Assembly (NCBI RefSeq): GCF_041248615.1
Contig: NZ_CP158426.1
Source of the DNA: Escherichia coli
Lineage (GTDB): Bacteria; Pseudomonadota; Gammaproteobacteria; Enterobacterales; Enterobacteriaceae
Reading direction: 5' to 3' (one strand)
Length of the DNA stretch: 64,000 nt
The position numbers were made by a program, and so were the translations under genes. Under the pieces are notes generated by a model. The model saw only the letters and a list, made by a program, of their open reading frames with translations, was not told where the DNA came from and did no database searches. How positions within the stretch are numbered: the first letter of the stretch is position 1; every line of letters starts with the position of its first letter. This document shows, piece by piece, positions 39,852 to 53,170 of this stretch.

Positions 39852-42296
39852 TTACACCTTTTCAACCTGAACAAGGTTTGTATGTGACGGATTCCCCTTA
39901 GCGAGAGGAGACGGACGTTGAGTGGTCAGTACGTTGATACAACCGCCCTTATCGACACGTTTTGCATCCGGGTCATACCAGGCACCTTCACCCAGTGCGA
40001 CCACACCCGGCATCATTCGTGGCGTCACTTTCGCCTCAATATGAACCTCACCACGATCGTTAAAGATCCTGACTTTATCGCCGTTGTTGATACCGCGTTT
40101 TTGTGCATCAAGCGGGTTGATCCACATTTCCTGACGGCAAGCTGCTTTCAGCACATCAACGTTGCCGTAAGTTGAGTGAACGCGAGATTTGTAGTGGAAG
40201 CCAGTAAGCTGCAGCGGATATTGTTTGTTCAGCGGATCCTGATAACTTTCAAAGCCCGGCGTATAGATCGGCAGTGGATCGATCACATCGCCTTCTGGCA
40301 ATTCCCAGGTCGCGGCAATGTCAGCCAGCGCCTGCGAATAAATCTCAATTTTACCCGATGGCGTGGTCAGTGGATTTGCCTGAGGATCTTCACGGAAAGC
40401 TTTATAAGCAACGTGGTGCCCTTGTGGGTCGCGCTTTTTAAAGATCCCCTGCTTGCGGAACTCTTCAAACGTTGGCAGTTCAGGAATCGCTTCCCGCGAC
40501 TGGGCATACAGATGCCGCATCCACTCTTCCTGTGTACGGCCTTCAGTAAACTGTTGCTCAACGCCAAGACGTTTTGCCAGTTCGCTGGTCATTTCATAGA
40601 TGGTCTTACATTCAAAGCGCGGTTTAATCACCTGATCGTTGAAAATCACGTAAGACATATTCCCGCAGGATGCATCCAGTGCAAAGTCCATCTGTTCGGA
40701 AGCGGTGCAGTCAGGCAGCAGGATGTCAGCATATTTCGCTGATGAGGTCATGTGGCAGTCGATAACCACAATCAGCTCGCACTTCTTATCATCCTGAAGG
40801 ATTTCATGGGTACGGTTGATTTCAGAATGCTGGTTAATCAGGCAGTTACCGGCATAGTTCCAGATCATTTTGATCGGCACATCCAGCTTATCTTTCCCGC
40901 GCACACCATCACGCAGCGCTGTCATTTCCGGGCCACGTTCAATGGCATCGGTCCACATAAACATCGAAATGCTGGTCTGGATCGGGTTTTCGAGGGTCGG
41001 CATACGGACAAACGGTAAGCTGTATGAACCTTCACGCGCGCCGCTGTTCCCCCCGTTAATACCAACGTTACCGGTCAGAATCGCCAGCATCGAGATAGCA
41101 CGGGTTGCGATTTCACCGTTAGCGTGACGCTGCGGGCCCCATCCCTGGCTGATAAACGCCGGTTTGGTACTGCCGATTTCACGAGCCAGTTTGATGATTT
41201 TGTCTGCCGGAACACCGGTGATTTGCGAGGCCCATTCCGGCGTTTTAGCCACGCCATCTGGCCCTTCACCCAGAATATAAGCTTTATAGTGACCATTTTT
41301 CGGCGCACTGGCTGGCAGTGTTTTCTCGTCGTAGCCAACGCAATATTTATCGAGGAATGCCTGATCCACCAGGTTTTCGGTGATCATGACATACGCCAGA
41401 CCGTTAACCAGTGCGGCATCTGTTCCCGGACGAATGGGGATCCACTCATCTTCGCGCCCGGCTCCGGTGTCGGTATAGCGCGGATCGATGATGATCATGC
41501 GAGCATTAGATTTCTGACGCGCCTGTTCAAGATAGTAAGTCACCCCACCGCCACTCATTCGCGTTTCGCCAGGGTTATTACCAAACAGCACTACCAGTTT
41601 ACTGTTTTCGATATCCGACGGGCTGTTACCATCTGCCCAGCCGCCGTAGGTATAGTTCAAACCTTCCGCAATTTGCGCGGAAGAGTAGTCACCGTAATGG
41701 TTCAGATAACCGCCGCAGCAGTTCATCAGGCGAGCGACCAGGGTATTTCCCGGCGGCCAGGAGCGGGTCATGGTGCCGCCCAGCGTACCGGTGCCATAGT
41801 TCAGATAGATAGACTCGTTGCCGTACTCTTTGATCAGGCGCTGCATATTGGTCGCGATGATGTCGTAGGCTTCTTCCCAGCTAATGCGCTCGAATTTGCC
41901 TTCACCGCGCGCCCCGACTCGTTTCATCGGATATTTCAGGCGGTCCGGATTGTAGACACGGCGACGCATGGAACGCCCACGCAGACAGGCGCGCACCTGG
42001 TGCAGGCCGTCATAGTTGTCATCGCCGGTATTATCCGTTTCAACATATTTAATTTCACCGTCCACAACGTGCATACGTAGCGGGCAGCGACTACCACAGT
42101 TAACTGTACAGGCGCTCCAGATAACCTTTTCGTCTGATTTTGTTGGAATGGCGCTATCGACAGCGTGCGCAATCCGACTAAAAGGTAATGTTAATGCGCT
42201 GCTGGCCATTGCCAGGCCGCCGATCGCTGTCGTTTTTACCAAACCACGGCGACTCACCTCAGCAGCCAATACCGCATCAGGGATTTTCGTTTTCAT
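39852..42296 (-). CDS. dmsA: DMSO reductase molybdopterin catalytic subunit with Tat signal
   Basis: 814 aa ORF with twin-arginine leader SRRGLVKTTAIGGLAMASSALTLPFS; dmsABC arrangement. Confidence 0.92.
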   Translation of the reverse strand: MKTKIPDAVLAAEVSRRGLVKTTAIGGLAMASSALTLPFSRIAHAVDSAIPTKSDEKVIWSACTVNCGSRCPLRMHVVDGEIKYVETDNTGDDNYDGLHQVRACLRGRSMRRRVYNPDRLKYPMKRVGARGEGKFERISWEEAYDIIATNMQRLIKEYGNESIYLNYGTGTLGGTMTRSWPPGNTLVARLMNCCGGYLNHYGDYSSAQIAEGLNYTYGGWADGNSPSDIENSKLVVLFGNNPGETRMSGGGVTYYLEQARQKSNARMIIIDPRYTDTGAGREDEWIPIRPGTDAALVNGLAYVMITENLVDQAFLDKYCVGYDEKTLPASAPKNGHYKAYILGEGPDGVAKTPEWASQITGVPADKIIKLAREIGSTKPAFISQGWGPQRHANGEIATRAISMLAILTGNVGINGGNSGAREGSYSLPFVRMPTLENPIQTSISMFMWTDAIERGPEMTALRDGVRGKDKLDVPIKMIWNYAGNCLINQHSEINRTHEILQDDKKCELIVVIDCHMTSSAKYADILLPDCTASEQMDFALDASCGNMSYVIFNDQVIKPRFECKTIYEMTSELAKRLGVEQQFTEGRTQEEWMRHLYAQSREAIPELPTFEEFRKQGIFKKRDPQGHHVAYKAFREDPQANPLTTPSGKIEIYSQALADIAATWELPEGDVIDPLPIYTPGFESYQDPLNKQYPLQLTGFHYKSRVHSTYGNVDVLKAACRQEMWINPLDAQKRGINNGDKVRIFNDRGEVHIEAKVTPRMMPGVVALGEGAWYDPDAKRVDKGGCINVLTTQRPSPLAKGNPSHTNLVQVEKV

Positions 42297-42466
42297 AATG
42301 GCTCACTCAAGCTTGCTCACGATTGATTCCAGTAACAAACCGTATTGTGTAATTATTTCTATAGCAGTTCGCTATATAGGCTTGTATACATCGAATAATT
42401 TGAAAATCAAAGAGATAGGTAGATTTTCACTCGAAAGTAGTATTACGTGTAAGTGAGGAGTAATTA

Positions 42467-42480
42467 TTGTTCGGTATCAA
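42467..42480. promoter_or_regulatory. candidate FNR-box-like dyad upstream of dmsA
   Basis: TTGTTcggtATCAA matches TTGAT-N4-ATCAA with one mismatch; position relative to the true dmsA transcription start not verified. Confidence 0.3.
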
Positions 42481-42592
42481 AGGGAGACAAAAAAAGCGCC
42501 CGCAGGAGATTTAACGGTACTTACTCCTCTTGCTGATTTCCTTATTTTTCAATAAGTAAACAAAAACAAGGGGAGCAAATTATCACAAATAA

Positions 42593-43597
42593 TTACTGGT
42601 CGATGGACAGTTTATGGACACTTTCAGCCAGCGGATTAAAGCTGATCGCATCCTGTAAAAAGTCCGGTGAAAAATGCGCATACGTCATCGTTTGCTGAAT
42701 CGTGGCGTGACCCAGGATCCTCTGCAACGTGACGATGTTCCCGCCGTTCATCATGAAATGCGTGGCGAACGTGTGCCGCATGACATGCGTGGCCTGCCCT
42801 TTGGGTAAGTCGGGCTTCACCTCCTGAAGGATCTCCCTGAAACTGAGATAATCAACCTGATATAACAGGCCGGTCCGGCGGGTTTTAATTAACGGCACAA
42901 CGGAATCAGCTACAGGAACCGAGCGCGATTTCCCGTTCTTTGTGTTAAAGAACGTCACCCTGTTACCCACGATGTGTTCCCCGCGAAGCGTTGACGCCTC
43001 TTTCCATCTGGCCCCGGTCGAAAGGCACAGAATGGCAATGCGTCGTGCATCACCCTCAAGCCGTTTCAGAAGGCGATCAATCTCGTCATCTGAAAGAAAG
43101 GCCATTTCTGTATTCTGAACCTTGAGTTTACGTATTCCGCGCACAGGGTTTTCGTTATGATAAACCTCCGCGTCAATTAACAACGAAAACATCGCAGATA
43201 AGGCGCACAGGTCGCGATTGATACTGGACGGCATCAGTCCCGCCTGCAACTTATCCGAGCGATACTCAATCACGAATTTTCGTGTCATCTGGCTGGCGCG
43301 CGGGTCCCCCATTTCACGTATCACCTTCTCCAGTCTGGTTCTGTAGGTATCACCATATGCCTGATTACGACCATCAAGCATCCACCACACCTCAATCAGT
43401 TCTGATAACCGCCGTTGATCGGCGGGCCTTGCCTGCCACGGGTTATTGTGGAAATTCTGAAGAACGTATCTTTCGAATTCCTGCGCCTTTGATTTCAGGG
43501 TGAAAATCTTACGAATCCGCCTTCCTCCCGCCCCCTGAGGCCTTACATCAACCTGATAACGTCCGTCTTTGAGTTGCTTAATCGACATGATCAGCAC
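42593..43597 (-). CDS. int: tyrosine-type phage integrase (P2 Int-like)
   Basis: 334 aa ORF; C-terminal HxxR...Y catalytic motifs (VMRHTFATHF, LGHATIQQTMTYAHF); N-terminus IKQLKDGRYQVDVRP resembles P2 Int; adjacent to host junction. Confidence 0.85.
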   Translation of the reverse strand: MLIMSIKQLKDGRYQVDVRPQGAGGRRIRKIFTLKSKAQEFERYVLQNFHNNPWQARPADQRRLSELIEVWWMLDGRNQAYGDTYRTRLEKVIREMGDPRASQMTRKFVIEYRSDKLQAGLMPSSINRDLCALSAMFSLLIDAEVYHNENPVRGIRKLKVQNTEMAFLSDDEIDRLLKRLEGDARRIAILCLSTGARWKEASTLRGEHIVGNRVTFFNTKNGKSRSVPVADSVVPLIKTRRTGLLYQVDYLSFREILQEVKPDLPKGQATHVMRHTFATHFMMNGGNIVTLQRILGHATIQQTMTYAHFSPDFLQDAISFNPLAESVHKLSIDQ

Positions 43598-43657: not shown

Positions 43658-43999
43658 TCAGCCAGCATTGCGGCCTGATTGGGGTGATTTTTGGGTATTG
43701 CGGGTTGAAACCTGATCGTCCTCCGACTGCGTGGAGCCATCAAGAGAGAGAGCCGGGGCGATCTGACCGGCAACAGGTAGCGTCTTATCTTTGATTAGCC
43801 AGAACATATATTTTTCAAACCGATCCACTTGAAGGACGGCCTCAACAATCTTTGCTCTGGCGATCTTTTGCCCTGACTCATAATTCCTGACAGTTGCCAG
43901 AGATAACCCTGTAATATCAGCAAATTGCTTTTGAGTTAGCCCTTCCGTCTTGCGTATCAAACGCAACTTTTTCGCATAGTCTATTGACAAGATACTCAT
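43658..43999 (-). CDS. phage immunity repressor, P2 C-like (HTH)
   Basis: 113 aa ORF with HTH (LTQKQFADITGLSLATVRNYESG) and C-terminal QIAPALSLDG...SPQSGRNAG resembling P2 C repressor; divergent from cox-like gene. Confidence 0.75.
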   Translation of the reverse strand: MSILSIDYAKKLRLIRKTEGLTQKQFADITGLSLATVRNYESGQKIARAKIVEAVLQVDRFEKYMFWLIKDKTLPVAGQIAPALSLDGSTQSEDDQVSTRNTQKSPQSGRNAG

Positions 44000-44022
44000 T
44001 TGGGGATTAATCTCCTACAAAA

Positions 44023-44067
44023 GATAACCGTACGATTATCTTTACAAGTCATCAAAAATCATCAAAA
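44023..44067. promoter_or_regulatory. candidate early promoter/operator region
   Basis: Near-perfect 22-bp palindrome AAGATAACCGTACGATTATCTT followed by tandem direct repeats TCATCAAAA/ATCATCAAAA in the C/cox-like intergenic region. Confidence 0.4.
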
Positions 44068-44102
44068 GGCGCAACAAGCGCACCAATGCAAGAGGATAAC
44101 AA

Positions 44103-44624
44103 ATGCGGGAGATTATTGCCGACAAAGAGTTATCTGGCGCTCAACCGGTTCAGGATGATGGCGCGGACAATGAATTCATTGAAGCTGCCAACGACAACGA
44201 ACACCTGGAAACCAAAACCAGACCGTCCTACAAAAAGGGCGCAACCCTACGACTGGACGGCCCAGTCGCAGGACTTGTGTCACTGGAAAAAGGGGCTGCC
44301 TATCTGGGGGTAACAAAATCTGCGCTACGCGCCGCCATTCAGCGCGGGCAGATGCCGGGTCACAAAACGCGCTCAAATCCCGAAGATGAAAAGTCAGACG
44401 GTACATGGTGGTTTAACGCCAAAGCCTGGGACGAACTAGCCGACGAACTACTGGAGTGCGAACCGCCAGAGTGGCACAACTGGAAAAGCTACTGGACGTA
44501 CGACCGCAAGAAAAGAAAGTTTTCACCGGCAAACAAGGAGGACTGCCAGACCGTTAAAGGTAAGCAGGTTTACTCCCCCAGAGTTTCAAAACTGGAGCAA
44601 CTCAAAAACAACCAGCCCGGCTAA
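44103..44624 (+). CDS. cox-position early gene, HTH-containing (excisionase/regulator-like), 173 aa
   Basis: First rightward ORF after repressor, RBS gagga upstream; contains AAYLGVTKSALRAAIQRGQMPG HTH-like segment; much longer than P2 Cox. Confidence 0.5.
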   Translation: MREIIADKELSGAQPVQDDGADNEFIEAANDNEHLETKTRPSYKKGATLRLDGPVAGLVSLEKGAAYLGVTKSALRAAIQRGQMPGHKTRSNPEDEKSDGTWWFNAKAWDELADELLECEPPEWHNWKSYWTYDRKKRKFSPANKEDCQTVKGKQVYSPRVSKLEQLKNNQPG

Positions 44625-46675: not shown

Positions 46676-47158
46676 TTATCGGGAAAAACCGATCGTAATG
46701 GCAGCCATCATCTTTTCAGCGAAAGAGAGAGATTCACGATGACTGATATTCAGAGACATACAGGCTTTGTTGTACGCCACATTTTCCATGCATTCCAGGA
46801 CAGGAGAGTCATGCATCTCAAGCTCTGGAAGGCGTGCCAGCAGAGCTTCCGTACTGAGGAGGGCGCTTTTGGTAATCAACTCATTGTAGCGATGGGCATG
46901 CTCACTCGCCGCCTGCGCACGTTGCCCGAAACGACATATGAAATTACAGGCTCCGAGAACCACCACCACTGCCCCAAGCACCCAGCCGAAATGCCAGCCG
47001 GCTACGATGAACGCACCCGCCGCAAGGATCAAAATGTTGATGATCGCATCAAGGCGACGATTGAATACCGCCGCGATGCGCTCCAGCCAGTAGCTGTACC
47101 AGAGACGGAACATGACCTCATCCCGTTCTCTCGATTTTTTACGTTGGTTGTTTTGCAT
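46676..47158 (-). CDS. hypothetical membrane protein, opposite orientation within early region (160 aa)
   Basis: ORF with basic N-terminus and long hydrophobic segment AIINILILAAGAFIVAGWHFGWVLGAVVVVLGACNFI; RBS-like gaggga upstream; the overlapping plus-strand ORF 46658-47293 is His-rich and judged a shadow. Confidence 0.45.
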   Translation of the reverse strand: MQNNQRKKSRERDEVMFRLWYSYWLERIAAVFNRRLDAIINILILAAGAFIVAGWHFGWVLGAVVVVLGACNFICRFGQRAQAASEHAHRYNELITKSALLSTEALLARLPELEMHDSPVLECMENVAYNKACMSLNISHRESLSFAEKMMAAITIGFSR

Positions 47159-47392
47159 GGTGTTTTATCCCTCATCGTCATCGCTCTGCCCCTAATCAGC
47201 GCAGAGTGCAGGGTAACCTGGCTCGTGGAATTTTTGCAGCCAGACATCTTTACCCCCGGGCGTGTTGAACAAAGTGTCCGCCAGATCCACTGAACGGCGG
47301 ATTCATCAATGCTAACACGCCCTTCTTTTCCGGTTGAAGGCGAAAAAACCGGACCATTACCCCGACACAAAACAGAACAACGGAGAACAACT

Positions 47393-47947
47393 ATGCCCGC
47401 ACTTAAACCTATGGGTGTATCAGGTGTACCACCGAAGCATGTCAGAGCCTGGACACAACAGGAAGATGCTCTACTGGTCGGTTTATACCCCTCCCACACC
47501 GTACCAGAACTGACAAAACACTTTCAGAGAACCGGGCCAGCAATACGAAGCCGCATCCGTCTTTTGCTCTCTCAGGGGGTTATCCACACCAAACAACCCC
47601 CCCTGAATACAAAAGAACTCAACACGCTCATCAGGAATCGCCACACAAAAACCATCCGGGAACTCGCGAATGAACTGGGGCGCTCGACATCCACGGTGGG
47701 ACTGAACCTGAGAAAAAGAGGGTACCGGTTCAGGAAATACGGGGAACTCCACCACAGAGCCAGATACAGCGATCACCTGGTGGAGTTGGTAACTGAACTG
47801 CGCGATGAACAGGGGATGACATTCAGCGAAATCAGAAAGTACATCCGGGACATGGCCGGGATATCCCTTAAAAGATGGGTCCTCGCCCGGCTTTACGCAC
47901 GATATACCGCCGCTGACACCGTGCTTTGCGAACTGCTACCGGACTGA
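47393..47947 (+). CDS. hypothetical protein, possible DNA-binding (184 aa)
   Basis: ORF 47309-47947; start placed at MPALKPMG with RBS ggag upstream; basic, helix-rich segments. Confidence 0.4.
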   Translation: MPALKPMGVSGVPPKHVRAWTQQEDALLVGLYPSHTVPELTKHFQRTGPAIRSRIRLLLSQGVIHTKQPPLNTKELNTLIRNRHTKTIRELANELGRSTSTVGLNLRKRGYRFRKYGELHHRARYSDHLVELVTELRDEQGMTFSEIRKYIRDMAGISLKRWVLARLYARYTAADTVLCELLPD

Positions 47948-48036
47948 GTAACCACTATGCACACACAAAAAAACCGCTTGCCATGCCGCAATCAGTCAGG
48001 TTACATTTCCGCTGCACCTCATAAAACGGGTGCCGG

Positions 48037-48260
48037 GATTGCAACCCCCGCTGACAACTACAGCGCACAACCGCGCCAGCGGTTTTTTTGTGCGTACCGT
48101 ATCGCCACGTCTTTTTCGCGCCAGAATTATGGCGGGGCGTATGGGGCCGACTTCGGTCGGGCCGGTTTCTGTAGTTGCCGGTGGTTGCAACCCTGTACGT
48201 CTCGCCACCCAGAATTGCAACCTCTGGATGGTGAGTTTTCAAAACTTGCAACTACAGAGG
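48037..48260. repeat. non-coding repeat cluster (TTGCAAC and CAACTACAG motifs, with hairpins)
   Basis: TTGCAAC at about 48040, 48185, 48216, 48247; CAACTACAG at about 48054 and 48250 with inverted copy tgtagttg at about 48171; ccgacttcggtcgg tetraloop-type hairpin at about 48145. Confidence 0.5.
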
Positions 48261-48267
48261 CCACACC

Positions 48268-48492
48268 ATGGCAAACCGCAAACAACAGCGCGCATACGCT
48301 GCGCGTCGTCACATCCAGACTGAAATCAACCGCAGACTTTTCCGCGCATTCCGCGTCGCGCATATCATGCACATCAATATGCTGCATGAGCGCAGCCACG
48401 CACTGTCAAACATGTATTCCGCCGCTGTATTCAGCTACCTGGCGGATGACCTGCGCGAGCTGCAGGACCTCATTAACCAGCACCACCACTAA
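48268..48492 (+). CDS. hypothetical protein (74 aa)
   Basis: ORF with RBS agagg upstream, downstream of repeat cluster. Confidence 0.4.
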   Translation: MANRKQQRAYAARRHIQTEINRRLFRAFRVAHIMHINMLHERSHALSNMYSAAVFSYLADDLRELQDLINQHHH

Positions 48493-48979: not shown

Positions 48980-51490
48980 ATGAGCCATCACCACACGCAC
49001 CTGGCGTACCCGTGGAACGCCCCGCTGCCGGTTATTGATCCTGAGACATTCGGCAGAGCATTACCGCAGAAGCCAACCGCATTACAACGGGCAATCCGTG
49101 ACTACCTCACCGAAGACATTCGCACTGAGGCCCGGCTGGATGAAGAAACCGTGGCCTTCCTGACAACCACGGACAAAGGTAAGCAAATTAATTCACACCT
49201 TCACCGGGACGAAGAGCGGCAGATAAGGCTGGATAAGCTGGCACGACACAGACGCGAAAATCCGCCAACGGCGGTATCGGAGGCGATAGCCGAACTTCGC
49301 ACCCTGCCCTCGTTTCTTGCCAGTGTGTTGATCCGTGATCTGGCACGACTGAACCGGAAACAGCAAAGTGCCCGCAGTGAAGGTGTAAAAAACAACAGCG
49401 CATACGTGGCCGATAATTTCGTTCGCCGTGGACTGCGTGCGCGCCTGAAACGTATTGAAAGGGTTAACGACCGCTTTGCAACGCCGGCATTCAAAACCAC
49501 CGTCGTGCGCCATCGCCTTGAAGAACTGCTCACACTGCCGCAACTCACCCGTGACGAAATCCAGCGCATCGCCACACTGACAGCCCAGGCATTCGCCGCA
49601 GAATTTGAACGCATATGTGATGAAGTTCTTGAACGGACAGGCAAGGATAATGACAGCCCGGTTATCTGGCTGCTGGCCTACCAGAAGGTGGCACGCACAG
49701 CCTTAATTCTGGGCATGGTCCCGCCATACTGGCCGGAACTCGAAATCAGGCACAACCGACGCACACCGCCGGACCCTGAACGGGTTCCGGGTGCGGTACT
49801 GCGCATCACCTGCGCGACCTGGTGGAACAACCAGTTACGCCACGTCGCCGATCTCTGGCGGGAGGAGTTACTGCGCGCCGCCGGCAGAGTGTCACGTAAA
49901 CAATCCCCCTATATCAGCCATGAGTCACTACTGGAGTTCCGCGAGAAGCGCCAGCGCACCTGTGACTTTCTCAAAAGCTGGGATATTGAAAACGAAGACG
50001 GCGAGCGCCTGAGTCTGGAGGACGTGTACTGGGCTGGCCTGGGTAATCCACGCAACCGCCGCAATGAAATGATGGTCTGCGTCAGAGGGATGGAGATGGT
50101 GGCCGAATTACGGGCTGACGTCGCATTCTTCATCACAGTAACCACCCCTTCCCGCTTTCACAGCGTGAACGAGAACGGCAGCCTGAACCCGAAATACAAC
50201 GGTGCCACAGTACGAGATGCCAGTGATTATCTGGTTTACGACTTCTTCGCAGCCGTAAGAAAAAAAATAAAAAAAGAGGGGCTGGGCTGGTACGGCGTGC
50301 GAACCGCTGAGCCACACCATGACGGCACGCCACACTGGCATATGCTGGTATTCACTTCCCCGGAGAACGCAGAGCGCATCATCGAAATTATGCGCGAAGC
50401 AGCAATTAAATCAGATCGCCACGAACTGGGGGACGATATTTCACCGCGCTTTAAATGCGAGAAGATAGACCCGGAAAAAGGCACACCGGCAAGCTATATC
50501 GCAACCTATATCGGTAAGAACCTGGACGCCAGCGCTTTCCACAACAATGATCCGAAAACCGGAAAACCTTACGTTGATGAGGAATCCGGGAAAACCATGG
50601 CGGAAACCGTGGAGAACGCCATTGCCTGGGCAAGCCTTCACCGCATCCGTCAGTTCCAGTTTTTCGGCATTCCGCCCCGCCAGGTATGGCGTGAACTCCG
50701 CCGCCTTGCAAGCCAGATGGAGCGCAACCCGGCATCACCGAAGCACCTCGATCATGACGATATTGACGCCATTATGGCTGCCGCAGATGTGGGATGTTTT
50801 GCCACCTACATCATGAAACAGGGTGGTGTGCTCATTCCGCGCAACCAGTATCTGGTCCGCACCGCATACGAAACCGCAGACGAAGCCAACGACTACGGTG
50901 AATTCCCTCAACGTATCTACGGAATCTGCGCCCCGTCGCTCGGAGAGCGGTACACCATATGCACCCATCCGGACGAGTGGAAACTGGTTAAAAAAGAAAC
51001 AACACCAGACAACCGCACGGGCGAGGGTTTTGACCTTCATGGCGACCCCGTCGCCCCTTGGACTCGTGGCAATAACTGTCCCCGGGATGAAAAAACAGAC
51101 AATCACGGACCAGAAAACAGGCAGGACCCCGGACGACTGACGCTTCCCGAAGAGAACCTGGAAAGCTGGCTGAATACGTTAAGCAGGGGCGATCGGAGAA
51201 AACTGCGTAATCAGATTAAAAATCAGCCGTCGGGCGCAAAAACCGGACAAAACGACACCACACCGGCATCTGACACCCCTGTAAGGGTGGGGATTGTCGT
51301 GCCTGCGGATACCGCGACGGACACGCAAATCGCCCGCGAACTTGATGCGCTGGGTGTGCAGTTGCCTGACGCGGCCATCATCTCCGTGCGTAACGGTGCC
51401 CGTGTGCGTCTGGATAACGGGGGAACAGCGTACTGGGATGAGTCAGCCCGTCACATCATCACAGAGCAGCCAGTGGAGGCGGGAGCATGA
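48980..51490 (+). CDS. A: replication initiation endonuclease, P2 gpA-like (rolling-circle)
   Basis: 836 aa ORF in the gene A position; HUH-type GTPHWHMLVF motif. Confidence 0.8.
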   Translation: MSHHHTHLAYPWNAPLPVIDPETFGRALPQKPTALQRAIRDYLTEDIRTEARLDEETVAFLTTTDKGKQINSHLHRDEERQIRLDKLARHRRENPPTAVSEAIAELRTLPSFLASVLIRDLARLNRKQQSARSEGVKNNSAYVADNFVRRGLRARLKRIERVNDRFATPAFKTTVVRHRLEELLTLPQLTRDEIQRIATLTAQAFAAEFERICDEVLERTGKDNDSPVIWLLAYQKVARTALILGMVPPYWPELEIRHNRRTPPDPERVPGAVLRITCATWWNNQLRHVADLWREELLRAAGRVSRKQSPYISHESLLEFREKRQRTCDFLKSWDIENEDGERLSLEDVYWAGLGNPRNRRNEMMVCVRGMEMVAELRADVAFFITVTTPSRFHSVNENGSLNPKYNGATVRDASDYLVYDFFAAVRKKIKKEGLGWYGVRTAEPHHDGTPHWHMLVFTSPENAERIIEIMREAAIKSDRHELGDDISPRFKCEKIDPEKGTPASYIATYIGKNLDASAFHNNDPKTGKPYVDEESGKTMAETVENAIAWASLHRIRQFQFFGIPPRQVWRELRRLASQMERNPASPKHLDHDDIDAIMAAADVGCFATYIMKQGGVLIPRNQYLVRTAYETADEANDYGEFPQRIYGICAPSLGERYTICTHPDEWKLVKKETTPDNRTGEGFDLHGDPVAPWTRGNNCPRDEKTDNHGPENRQDPGRLTLPEENLESWLNTLSRGDRRKLRNQIKNQPSGAKTGQNDTTPASDTPVRVGIVVPADTATDTQIARELDALGVQLPDAAIISVRNGARVRLDNGGTAYWDESARHIITEQPVEAGA

Positions 51491-53081: not shown

Positions 53082-53170
53082 TGCACAATAGTGCACAAAT
53101 TTGCACAATTTTTTTGAACGACTTTTTGCCCTTCCGGCCCGTGTGGCGTCTGGATCCGTCGGGGATCCGT
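53082..53170. promoter_or_regulatory. phased direct repeats (operator or iteron-like)
   Basis: TGCACAA at 53082, 53092 and 53102 (exact 10-bp phasing); GGATCCGT twice at about 53151 and 53163. Confidence 0.45.

Follow-up and report, generated by a model that had tools for sequence, protein, structure and literature searches.

Positions 43658–44624 of the window (the whole 64,000-nucleotide, or 64-kb, stretch of E. coli DNA that was analysed) are the lysis–lysogeny switch of a P2-like E. coli prophage, a switch of the ordinary kind with an uncharacterised immunity class. In the model that we favor, and regard as likely when taken as a whole, a prophage of the Peduoviridae, related to P88/Xuanwuvirus, is inserted upstream of dmsA and carries a bistable switch on the P2/WPhi plan. 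In this switch, the C repressor would act on two operators (O1 and O2) to shut the early promoter (Pe) and give immunity, and an unusually long Cox protein would act on phased ACAAR boxes to repress the lysogenic promoter (Pc). Homology, protein fold, gene order, the positions of the motifs, and the co-variation of these motifs with C or Cox were observed directly. The genes and integration-site elements of the locus are as follows.

42387–42521, + strand: host sRNA gene STnc130, across the attL junction (Rfam, 125.8 bits against a gathering score of 55).
42593–43588, − strand: P2-type tyrosine integrase (Pfam Int_N, 2.2e-30; Phage_integrase, 1.3e-17; RefSeq 'phage integrase').
42603–42620, + strand: two direct ATGGACA repeats in the 3′ end of int, read from the sequence as P2-type Int arm-binding sites (P′ arm) and invariant among relatives.
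43658–43999, − strand: C-type immunity repressor of 113 aa with an N-terminal HTH_3 domain and a GQIAPAL motif (P2 C homology, Pfam, alignment).
44103–44624, + strand: Cox-family protein of 173 aa (Pfam, AF2, Foldseek, dN/dS, alignments).

We compared this region with ~45 related int–C–cox loci and performed several tests on 10 of them. The int–C–cox order was identical across all relatives, and the window matched several E. coli chromosomes at 100%, where RefSeq labels the 173-aa CDS 'Cox family DNA-binding protein'. By the ORF map and RefSeq annotation, C is the first gene of a C–int operon and faces cox over a short control region of 103 bp. Downstream, cox is followed by a gene for a 68-aa hydrophobic protein, and a cII-like gene is absent there. 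We found no LexA box near the switch or derepression gene, counts being at chance level. Prophage-free E. coli genomes matched only 42297–42506/42512 of this part of the window; host homology stops at ~42506–42512, and the att core thus overlaps the terminator hairpin of STnc130. The ATGGACA repeats may be compared with the P2-type Int arm consensus, tgTGGaCa (PMC3448106), and a related int occupies the dmsA site in 343 of 5426 complete E. coli genomes (~6%).

As the earlier note had proposed, the repressor resembles P2 C, with 35% identity over its full length (110 columns; E 2e-24), and it matched phrog_147 at 3e-28. The hallmark of C-type repressors is an N-terminal HTH followed by a GQIAPAL motif ahead of a flexible tail (PMC3448106). 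In the window protein, HTH_3 occupies residues 12–57 (Pfam, 4.3e-9), and the GQIAPAL-motif stretch AGQIAPALSLDG is present and invariant in the family alignment.

The same note had described the divergent ORF as encoding 173 aa with an internal HTH, and this description proved accurate: Pfam Phage_Cox (PF10743) matched residues 56–129 (34.8 bits compared to a cutoff of 27.5; profile positions 9–86 of 87), which places the HTH in the interior of the protein. The sequence comprises an acidic, disordered N-terminal tail (residues 1–37; net charge −9), a basic patch (38–50), a winged-HTH core (~50–125), and a conserved, basic, aromatic-rich C-terminal extension (131–173; net charge +7). AF2 modeling from 44 close homologues gave a pLDDT of 42.9 and was discarded, a more diverse MSA being required; template-free modeling from a diverse MSA that included a P2 Cox row gave pLDDT values of 81–94 for the core and predicted residues 1–43 to be disordered. 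The best Foldseek match for the core was P2 Cox (4LHF; TMt 0.72, rmsd 2.8 Å, 79 columns, all 79 residues covered), and the predicted core shows both the winged-HTH fold and the C-terminal segment through which P2 Cox oligomerises. At 173 aa, the protein exceeds the small single domain of ~80–91 aa of the Cox family, and lengths in the wider family grade from 91 through 100–129 to 161–192 aa.

Only residues ~50–130 of this Cox align with P2 Cox, and the predicted disorder of residues 1–43 could likewise be read to mean that the 173-aa ORF is an annotation artefact and that the true Cox starts internally, for example at GTG codon 59, with an ordinary length. We give this reading next to no credence. 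There is no ATG before residue 84, and a start at GTG codon 59 would delete the first β-strand. The length stays at 173–192 aa in E. coli, Shigella, Yersinia, Salmonella, and Serratia, and the PHROGs family phrog_23196 is a full-length family that matches residues 1–171. An AGGA Shine–Dalgarno sequence and the ATG at 44103 are invariant in every relative, and the extensions stay in frame across many indels and are under purifying selection (dN/dS of 0.36 for the linker, with in-frame indels only, and 0.12 for the C-terminal extension). These features rule out an internal start that gives a Cox of normal length; the upstream ATG is genuine.

The control elements closest to C are a candidate promoter and two candidate operators.

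43984–44013, + strand: putative early promoter Pe, with a −35 TTGACA (43984–43989) inside C codons 4–5, an 18-nt spacer, and a −10 TAATCT (44008–44013).
43990–44009, unstranded: putative operator O1, AGATACTCAT/TTGGGGATTA, centred on the C start codon, recognised from the O1/O2 direct repeat among relatives.
44020–44043, unstranded: putative operator O2 (palindrome), just 3′ of the Pe −10 and a candidate site for one symmetric C dimer, based on symmetry, alleles, and co-variation with C.

The position of Pe is suggested by a sequence scan in which it outscored every other + strand promoter in each of the 10 loci (9.9–14.2 bits) and by its −35 element, which occupies a position homologous to that of the P2 Pe −35, annotated over the start codon of C. 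The palindrome between this promoter and cox is present as had been noted: AAAGATAACCGT/ACGATTATCTTT spans 24 bp without a spacer, and 11 of 12 arm positions are complementary. When the 128-nt region was shuffled 500 times, only 3 shuffles equalled its score of 9/10 in a 10+10 window, and a near-identical IMG/VR allele (L014) is a perfect palindrome (12/12). In 8 of 10 loci, the centre of the best palindrome is 29–33 nt away from the start of C; the exceptions are two weak-dyad loci of types C and D (L006 and L011), which place their best palindrome elsewhere.

It had also been claimed that the palindrome stands in place of spaced direct repeats, and the comparison contradicts this claim, because the palindrome is the downstream member (O2) of an O1/O2 pair 32–33 bp apart. 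The left arm of O1, which lies 32 bp upstream of O2, is a repeat of the left arm of O2, and the right arm of O1 is degenerate. This direct repeat (offset 32–33) topped all repeats in 8 of 10 loci, always in the same position, with identity at 14–17 of 20 positions; among these 8 loci, six had at most 4 of 500 shuffles reach the observed score, and the remaining two had 23 and 34 of 500. The window's own repeat is weak (10 of 20 positions, left arm only), and the case leans on the relatives, which counts against it. Paired direct-repeat sites flanking a Pe hexamer and two to three helical turns apart are nevertheless present in 8 of 10 loci. The half-sites of P2 C have been stressed as non-palindromic (PMC2995052), whereas O2 is symmetric. 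Dyad symmetry scored 8–9/10 in types A, B, and E but only 5–7/10 in types C and D, the latter counting against a symmetric site.

The loci fall into six specificity types, each with its own half-site, and the half-site shifts with the recognition region of C. Types A and C, for example, have similar recognition regions (SLATVRNYE and SLSTIRNYE) and similar left half-sites (AGATAACC and AGATACCC). Among 6 type-A and 8 type-B alleles, the arms of O2 are fixed and its centre is variable. Natural mosaics separate the two regulators. UTI89 and 569R5 are 99% identical in Cox and 95% identical in the box region, compared to 62% in the N-terminal domain of C and 53% in the O1–O2 region; UTI89 and a Yersinia relative are 100% identical in the N-terminal domain of C and 88% in the O-region, compared to just 72% in Cox. 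Thus, the operator tracks C and not Cox, although co-inheritance of the adjacent C gene and operator could mimic such co-variation. We conclude from these comparisons that the palindrome is most likely a repressor operator.

The same element might instead act as RNA, as a 5′ stem-loop on the Pe transcript or as its complement on the Pc transcript, and so control stability, termination, or translation. If Pe starts at ~44020, the palindrome would be the first 24 nt of the mRNA, and a stem and loop would account equally well for arms that are fixed around a variable centre. This proposal, which we judge very improbable, leaves O1 unexplained, since this copy lies within the promoter spacer, 5′ of the start site, and agrees at 14–17 of 20 positions in most relatives, and it does not account for the pairing of similar recognition regions with similar left half-sites in types A and C. 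Moreover, in types C and D the direct repeat is kept although the dyad is poor, which makes the repeat, not a hairpin, the conserved feature.

A second set of motifs occupies the rest of the control region and recurs at the attachment site.

44044–44087, + strand: five-box array with a 10-bp period (ACAAG, tCAAAAA, tCAAAAG, ACAAG, CCAAT), a putative Cox operator over or beside Pc.
42556–42592, + strand: phased ACAA/GCAA/ACAA boxes in the interval that separates the int stop codon from the core, on the side of attL that belongs to the phage, a putative Cox excision site.

The tandem direct repeats that the earlier note had placed here were found, as two copies of TCATCAAAA at 44049–44057 and 44059–44067 with a 10-bp period and one base between them; just 5 further exact copies occur on both strands of the whole window. 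These two copies are boxes 2 and 3 of the five-box array. Across the family, the box consensus is ACAAR(C/G)(C/G), with pooled frequencies of 0.80–0.98 per position for ACAA, and autocorrelation at lag 10 was 0.43 at the switch and 0.44 at attP compared to ~0.29 at other lags. One relative (L026) has gained exactly one 10-bp unit in the array. The attL-side boxes (three to four) are kept in 10 of 10 loci at any integration site and lie in the same relative position as annotated P2 Cox binding. The array is conserved across heteroimmune relatives, follows Cox rather than C in the natural mosaics, and recurs beside the Int arm sites, which together form the signature expected of Cox boxes. For P2, cox-boxes are spaced 10–11 bp apart in arrays of at least six that overlap Pc (PMC3936717). 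In the loci studied here, arrays with about one box per helical turn are likewise present at both the Pc region and attP, where Cox would be the protein that binds them.

Several observations count against this assignment. Boxes 2–3 of the window read AAAA rather than ACAA and are the most degenerate of the family, and the box core has just 4–5 informative bases and is A-rich. The strict pattern ACAA-N6-ACAA-N6-ACAA matches the switch and attP of relatives, but a search with one mismatch allowed misses the switch of the window and matches three other + strand sites in the prophage. The boxes also differ in sequence from those of P2: a search with the P2 cox-box consensus, TTAAA(G/C)NC(A/C), found no array, only scattered one-mismatch matches outside the box region and none at attP.

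The tandem repeats had been taken as part of the repressor operator, and the palindrome and TCATCAAAA repeats could together form a composite C operator with a layout unlike that of any P2-family phage. The two motifs abut, with the palindrome ending at 44043 and the repeats starting at 44049, and the footprint of P2 C reaches ~12 nt past O2 (PMC1904263). We consider such an operator improbable, because the repeat region is 84–95% conserved where the DNA-binding domains of C are 57–62% identical and the palindromes wholly different, the repeats have no sequence in common with the palindrome arms, and the phased boxes occur again at attP, a site at which C is not known to act. The repeats are common to heteroimmune phages and track Cox over C in mosaics, and hence are probably not repressor operators.

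Phased A-rich repeats could also be architectural DNA (an intrinsic bend, an IHF/Fis-type site, or an UP-like element) or Pc itself. The informative core is indeed short and A-rich, boxes 2–3 of the window are A-tracts at a 10-bp phase, and box 3 alleles drift to minus-strand −10-like hexamers (TATAAT, TATGAA, and TGTGAT); in addition, C-family repressors and Cox both bend DNA (PMC1904263, PMC3936717). We nonetheless regard this possibility as unlikely, given that the cytosine at box position 5 is retained at a frequency of 0.80, box 4 (GCGACAAGCG) is not an A-tract, the ACAA register appears beside the Int arm sites at exactly the P2 Cox position, and the array tracks the Cox allele. DNA bending and Cox binding are compatible with each other. 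From the sequence comparisons, the tandem repeats are most likely binding boxes for the long Cox protein.

The placement of Pc was approached by a minus-strand σ70 PWM scan and hand inspection, and a terminator scan covered the same stretch.

44061–44122, − strand: region with the candidate lysogenic promoter Pc.
44086–91 and 44061–67, − strand: Pc candidate (d), TTGCAT, 18–19 nt, TTTTGA/TTTGAT.
44117–22 and 44093–98, − strand: Pc candidate (c), TCGGCA, 18 nt, TATCCT, invariant among relatives.
44068–44084, unstranded: GC-rich imperfect inverted repeat GGCGCAACAAGCGCACC inside boxes 4–5, terminator-like on the minus strand.

Apart from the invariant candidate (c), the scan revealed no minus-strand candidate that was both strong and positionally conserved. 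Transcripts would begin at ~44086 from candidate (c) and at ~44054 from candidate (d). If candidate (c) is Pc, the ACAAR boxes sit downstream of the start site and not over the promoter, which counts against the model. Two RNA structures in this region were also considered. A hairpin between the Shine–Dalgarno-adjacent GGAUAAC and GUUAUCU in codons 10–11 has seven pairs that are all invariant, with no covariation and a z-score of −1.2. The other is the 44068–44084 repeat as a conserved RNA stem; its sequence is conserved, and compensatory changes were not seen by eye.

We infer binding partners and promoter positions from these data as follows. Pe would start inside the first C codons and read rightward into cox, and a weaker Pc would read leftward into C and int. 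C dimers on O1 and O2, 32 bp or three helical turns apart and thus on the same face of DNA, would bracket the Pe −10 and turn Pe off. Because O2 is truly dyad-symmetric, a single symmetric C dimer could read it with both of its HTHs, and O1 may retain only the left arm because its right arm has to specify the Pe −10 and the ribosome site of C as well. The winged-HTH core of Cox would bind the ACAAR boxes that lie from O2 to cox, with a protomer at each helical turn, thereby repressing Pc, and Cox on similar boxes beside the Int arm sites at attP would direct excision. Binding of Cox to the boxes, and any role of its N-terminal tail or C-terminal extension, are likewise proposals.

This arrangement can be compared with known systems. 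WPhi (class III) also has a small C divergent from cox, convergent Pe and Pc, a Pe −35 TTGACA that adjoins the C start codon, and two directly repeated C sites on either side of the Pe −10, separated by about three helical turns (PMC2995052, PMC1904263); their spacing of 34 nt, which we also read directly from the WPhi sequence, compares with 32–33 nt here. The repeat in WPhi is a 9–10-bp unit, TATTGGTGAC, for which dyad symmetry was not noted (PMC1904263, PMC2995052), whereas here the unit is ~20 bp and O2 is a near-perfect palindrome. Cox of WPhi is 90 aa and the intergenic region is 152 bp, compared to 173 aa and 103 bp in the window. P2 itself shares the int–C/cox order, a C protein 35% identical to that of the window, the fold of the Cox core (4LHF), and Cox boxes with about one per helical turn at both the switch and attP (PMC3936717). 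It differs in that its operators are 8-bp non-palindromic repeats 22 bp apart, its cox-box is TTAAA(G/C)NC(A/C) rather than ACAAR, and its 91-aa Cox has neither an acidic N-terminal tail nor an extra C-terminal segment. C.Esp1396I, cited by Massad et al. as a structural relative of P2 C (PMC2995052), is also a small HTH dimer, whose sites are palindromes in direct repeat, each bound by one dimer; it is a restriction-modification controller with a centre-to-centre spacing of 15 bp compared to 32 bp here, and the likeness is by analogy only. The box arrays also resemble the Apl sites of phage 186 in spacing and dual placement. Apl, an excisionase that is also a repressor, recognises direct repeats spaced by roughly one turn of the helix, at attP as well as in the stretch flanked by the two promoters that face each other. 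In 186, the switch is built from cII and a two-domain CI of ~190 aa, whereas the repressor of the window is a C-like protein of 113 aa and no cII-like gene follows cox; the locus is thus not a 186-type CI/Apl/CII switch.

The possibility of a distinct immunity type, raised by the earlier note, held in one respect and failed in another: specificity differs from that of P2 and of PhiECO5, the UTI89 prophage of tentative class IX, but the type is not new (PMC3448106). Nilsson et al. (2011) described from sequence a 'larger' group 2 of Cox proteins and tentative immunity classes VIII–X, including the UTI89 prophage at the dmsA site (PMC3448106). PhiECO5 (tentative class IX, Cox group 2) shares with the window the dmsA-proximal site, the int–C(113 aa)–Cox(173 aa) organization, Pe, the O1/O2 geometry, and the boxes, and its Cox is 74% identical to that of the window. 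Its C is only 64% identical (57% over the N-terminal 60 residues), and its half-site is TCTTCACC compared to AAGATAAC in the window. Members of one immunity class have C proteins at least 95% identical and alignable spacers (PMC3448106). By this measure, the divergence of C and the different half-site indicate a different immunity specificity, and with C at 64% and the O1–O2 region at 47% identity to UTI89, the window falls outside class IX. The C protein of the 569R5 type is 88% identical to that of the window, and its operator arms are the same; these two types are predicted to be homoimmune, and the UTI89 type, whose arms differ, heteroimmune. The P2 half-site GTTTAGAT is absent, which bears on the difference from P2 immunity.

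The larger group 2 Cox proteins and the tentative new immunity classes at the dmsA site had already been noted from sequence (PMC3448106), and in other respects the locus is an everyday P2-type switch of a heteroimmune phage. The textbook example of a symmetric HTH dimer on non-palindromic direct repeats is P2 C, and its mode of binding has been modelled rather than shown. We suggest, tentatively and with more doubt than confidence, that the C clade described here reads a true palindrome at O2 with both HTHs together with a half-degenerate copy at O1, and that it is the natural intermediate accounting for how 'non-palindromic direct repeats' became the targets of symmetric P2 C dimers. Under the same tentative proposal, Cox of this clade gained its acidic disordered tail (net −9) and its basic, β-rich C-terminal extension (net +7), which perhaps tune filament assembly on ACAAR boxes or add partner binding missing from the 91-aa Cox. 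The comparison yields testable operator and Cox-box maps for the dmsA-site prophage group. If the proposal is true, a natural relative whose operators are palindromes in direct repeat, the one perfect and the other half-degenerate, would offer a simple experimental handle on how P2 C binds DNA.

The switch belongs to a P2-like prophage that occupies 42.5–64 kb of the window and is inserted upstream of dmsA (39852–42296, minus strand). From its left end, the prophage reads:

42593–43588, minus strand: P2-type integrase (int)
43658–43999, minus strand: 113-aa HTH protein (C)
between the 113-aa HTH gene and the 173-aa ORF: control gap, 103 bp
44103–44624, plus strand: 173-aa ORF (Cox)
rightward after the 173-aa ORF: small early genes, a replication endonuclease and P2-type late genes

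C is 35% identical to the P2 C repressor (E 2e-24) and keeps the family motif GQIAPAL, bearing out the resemblance proposed in the earlier note. The palindrome described there is also present (AAAGATAACCGT/ACGATTATCTTT, 44020–44043). Its arms are complementary at 11 of the 12 positions, and just 3 of 500 shuffled versions of the region reached its score of 9/10. That note took the palindrome to replace the spaced direct repeats of P2-type operators. We compared ten int–C–cox loci retrieved through protein look-ups and a further 38 from IMG/VR. In 8 of the 10 loci, the region's best direct repeat was a ~20-bp unit at an offset of 32–33, and the best palindrome, centred 29–33 nt after the C start, lay on the downstream repeat copy (8/10 loci). 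We therefore propose two sites, O1 (43990–44009) and O2 (44020–44043); the palindrome is O2, one half of a spaced direct repeat rather than a substitute for it. This layout is the published C-site geometry of WPhi (34 nt; PMC1904263, PMC2995052; WPhi sequence). The centre of O1 falls exactly on the C start codon, and O1 of the window retains only the left arm (CAAGATAC versus AAAGATAA; 10/20 overall). This left arm (43990–43999 and homologous positions) is the reverse complement of C codons 1–3/4, so the N-terminal residues of C (MSIL, MVNM, MSIS, MLTL, MNSTL) shift with operator specificity.

The best plus-strand promoter in 10/10 loci was TTGAC(A/G)-18-TAnnnT. In the window, this predicted early promoter, Pe, has its –35 element at 43984–89, within the first codons of C at a position homologous to the annotated P2 Pe, and its –10 element at 44008–13 (plus strand). 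O1 and O2 would bracket its –10 element, three helical turns apart. At least six half-site types occur, paired with six different C recognition regions.

Half-sites of the proposed C operators, by type
Type A: AAGATAAC
Type B: TCTTCACC
Type C: AGATACCC..GGGGAT
Type D: GGTTAGC..GGTAAC
Type E: TGTCGAA..TTCGACA
Type L051: GTAGTT..AACTAC

Recognition helices are almost the same in types A and C, as are the left half-sites. Across six type-A and eight type-B alleles, the arms stay constant and variation is confined to the centre; in one allele, L014, the palindrome is perfect (12/12). Dyad symmetry is strong in types A, B and E and weak in C and D. Operator sequence follows the repressor. The palindrome could instead act as an RNA hairpin, but such a role leaves O1 unexplained, as it does the types in which the dyad is poor and the direct repeat good.

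The tandem repeats of the earlier note are likewise real (TCATCAAAA at 44049 and 44059, period 10 bp). When the sequence from O2 to the cox SD (50 bp) is divided into 10-nt blocks, ACAA is in register in four consecutive blocks and the fifth is degenerate (boxes 1–5, 44044–44087). The pooled consensus is ACAAR(C/G)(C/G), with the four core bases 0.80–0.98 conserved, and lag-10 autocorrelation of the region is 0.43 versus ~0.29 at other lags. The TCATCAAAA copies are boxes 2 and 3 and have AAAA where relatives have ACAA, making the window the most degenerate array allele. In one IMG/VR locus (L026), the intergenic region is 114 bp rather than 104 bp because one CCAAAACAAA unit (10 bp) is duplicated; thus, the array can lengthen by whole 10-bp units with its phase kept. 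The two identical TCATCAAAA units of the window may have a similar origin, box 2 having been converted to box 3.

Every locus, at any integration site, also has three to four phased ACAA boxes in the stretch separating the att core from the int stop codon, where they adjoin two ATGGACA Int arm repeats at the annotated P2 Cox binding position. P2 cox-boxes are spaced 10–11 bp apart, number at least six and overlap Pc, the lysogenic promoter (PMC3936717). Neither the P2 box consensus nor the P2 operator half-site occurs here. C and Cox are separated from each other in natural mosaics. Between UTI89 and 569R5, identity is 99% for Cox and 95% for the box region, versus 62% for the C N-domain and 53% for the O1–O2 region; between UTI89 and a Yersinia prophage, these values are 72%, 88%, 100% and 88%, respectively. 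The mosaics and the attP copy of the boxes contradict a composite C operator made of palindrome and tandem repeats together, as first suggested; the repeats belong to the phased array. With lower probability, the repeats may instead act purely as architectural, bent DNA, a role that would be consistent with wrapping by Cox. Three further matches to ACAA-N6-ACAA-N6-ACAA (≤1 mismatch; 47367–47390, 49163–49186 and 53085–53108), all on the plus strand and within the prophage, may be extra Cox sites or chance (0.39 expected per window; 3 reached in 2/100 shuffles). The 53085 match lies between genes, close to a moron-like gene beside the portal gene.

Only residues 56–129 of the 173-aa protein score above threshold against Pfam Phage_Cox, in agreement with the internal HTH noted earlier, and this core is 22% identical to P2 Cox. 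A database search gave 59 clusters of 173–192 aa from E. coli, Shigella, Yersinia, Salmonella and Serratia. All long-Cox homologues share the N-terminus MQEFIADKELSD, followed by a variable acidic linker whose indels all keep the frame, a patch of basic residues, the winged-HTH core and a conserved tail of aromatic and basic character (PPEWHNWKSYWTYDRxKRKF..KEDC..GKRVY..RKSKLEQ). AAGAGGATAACAAATG, which holds the SD and cox start codon, did not vary among the loci examined. Pooled dN/dS was 0.08 for the core, 0.12 for the C-extension, 0.36 for the linker and 0.30 for codons 1–12. AlphaFold with a diverse alignment predicted a confident core (residues 50–125, pLDDT 81–94), a disordered N-tail (residues 1–43) and, with moderate confidence, a four-stranded C-extension; the best PDB match by Foldseek was P2 Cox (4LHF, whole chain covered, TM 0.72). 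Net charge is –9 over residues 1–37 and +7 over residues 131–173. The family proved narrow when 1.8 billion representative proteins were searched exhaustively, grades in length from 91 aa (P2, WPhi) through 100–129 aa to 161–192 aa, and is already in PHROGs at full length (phrog_23196). Judged from sequence, the 173-aa Cox is real; an internal start is excluded as far as such evidence goes.

Codons 5–12 of cox (ATT GCC GAT AAA GAG TTA TCT GA; region 44094–44135) are nearly invariant, synonymous sites included, and pS is 0.35 over codons 1–12 versus ~0.65 in the remainder of the gene. The SD-adjacent GGATAAC (44094–44100) is complementary to GTTATCT (44129–44135), with seven of seven pairs invariant, no covariation and a z-score of –1.2; a half-site in this region resembles the type-A operator arm AGATAAC. 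The region could be an SD-sequestering hairpin, a Pc –35/upstream region or a protein site. An invariant Pc candidate mirroring Pe (TCGGCA-18-TATCCT; –35 in cox codons 6–7, –10 over the SD) might explain the low synonymous rate in codons 5–12. At the P2 Pc position lies another, TTGCAT-18/19-TTTTGA/TTTGAT, where the boxes would cover the promoter. Published transcript overlaps of 35 nt (P2) and 82 nt (WPhi) (PMC1904263) do not discriminate between the two.

In the mechanism we propose, which in overall plan is the P2/WPhi scheme, C dimers on O1 and O2 would occlude Pe, Cox on the ACAAR array, one protomer per helical turn, would repress Pc, and Cox on the attP array would serve as excision factor; we infer binding in each case. 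C could be inactivated through 48014–48492 in the early region, which resembles an antirepressor module under RNA control of the P1 ImmI-like or P4-like kind. There, isrK (48014–48089, 60.1 bits) and a C4 antisense RNA (48125–48212, 80.1 bits; both Rfam) immediately precede a 74-aa ORF of the 'Derepression' family (48268–48492; PF25738 at 27.2 bits, cutoff 27) common to P88-group (Xuanwuvirus) phages, with no LexA box close to the module. Upstream, the rightward early operon is broken by a 160-aa minus-strand ORF (46676–47158; phrog_6315, unknown function), after which comes a 212-aa HTH protein (47309–47947, plus strand; phrog_323, D5-like regulator); the pair looks like a moron-type insert.

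Several E. coli chromosomes match the prophage stretch at 100% identity, and phage record vB_EcoM-569R5 and the UTI89 prophage match it at ~80%. Related prophage sequence occupies this site in 343 of 5426 complete E. coli genomes, which match ≥80% of a 404-bp junction query (42297–42700). The host sRNA gene STnc130 (42387–42521, 125.8 bits) crosses the junction. Prophage-free E. coli align only as far as 42506–42512, so the att core overlaps the STnc130 terminator hairpin AAAAAAGCGCCCGCAGG, and the sRNA regains its 3' end from phage sequence. A very similar hairpin is present in relatives that use other integration sites.

Compared with characterised P2/WPhi members, the proposed C sites here are dyad-symmetric and Cox has two extra segments. 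Massad et al. (2010) stated that all seven classes then known seem to recognise direct repeats, and modelled one symmetric dimer per repeat with specific sequence read by one HTH only (PMC2995052). Nilsson et al. (2011) described a larger Cox 'group 2' sharing only six residues with group 1, tentative immunity classes VIII–X, class IX being the UTI89 prophage at the same site as ours, and spacers that were not alignable, with function still to be determined (PMC3448106). We found no paper in the literature on operators or Cox boxes of group 2 phages. C of the window shares 64% identity with the class IX repressor, and their half-sites differ; the switch therefore has another specificity within group 2 than class IX, perhaps that of class VIII or X. 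The suggested distinct immunity type holds insofar as the switch differs from P2 and class IX, and falls short in that the subgroup was already described from sequence; the original observation is confirmed and its interpretation partly right. The operator and box maps are new and inferential, and the switch is a further member of a sequence-described, experimentally untouched subgroup of P2-type switches.
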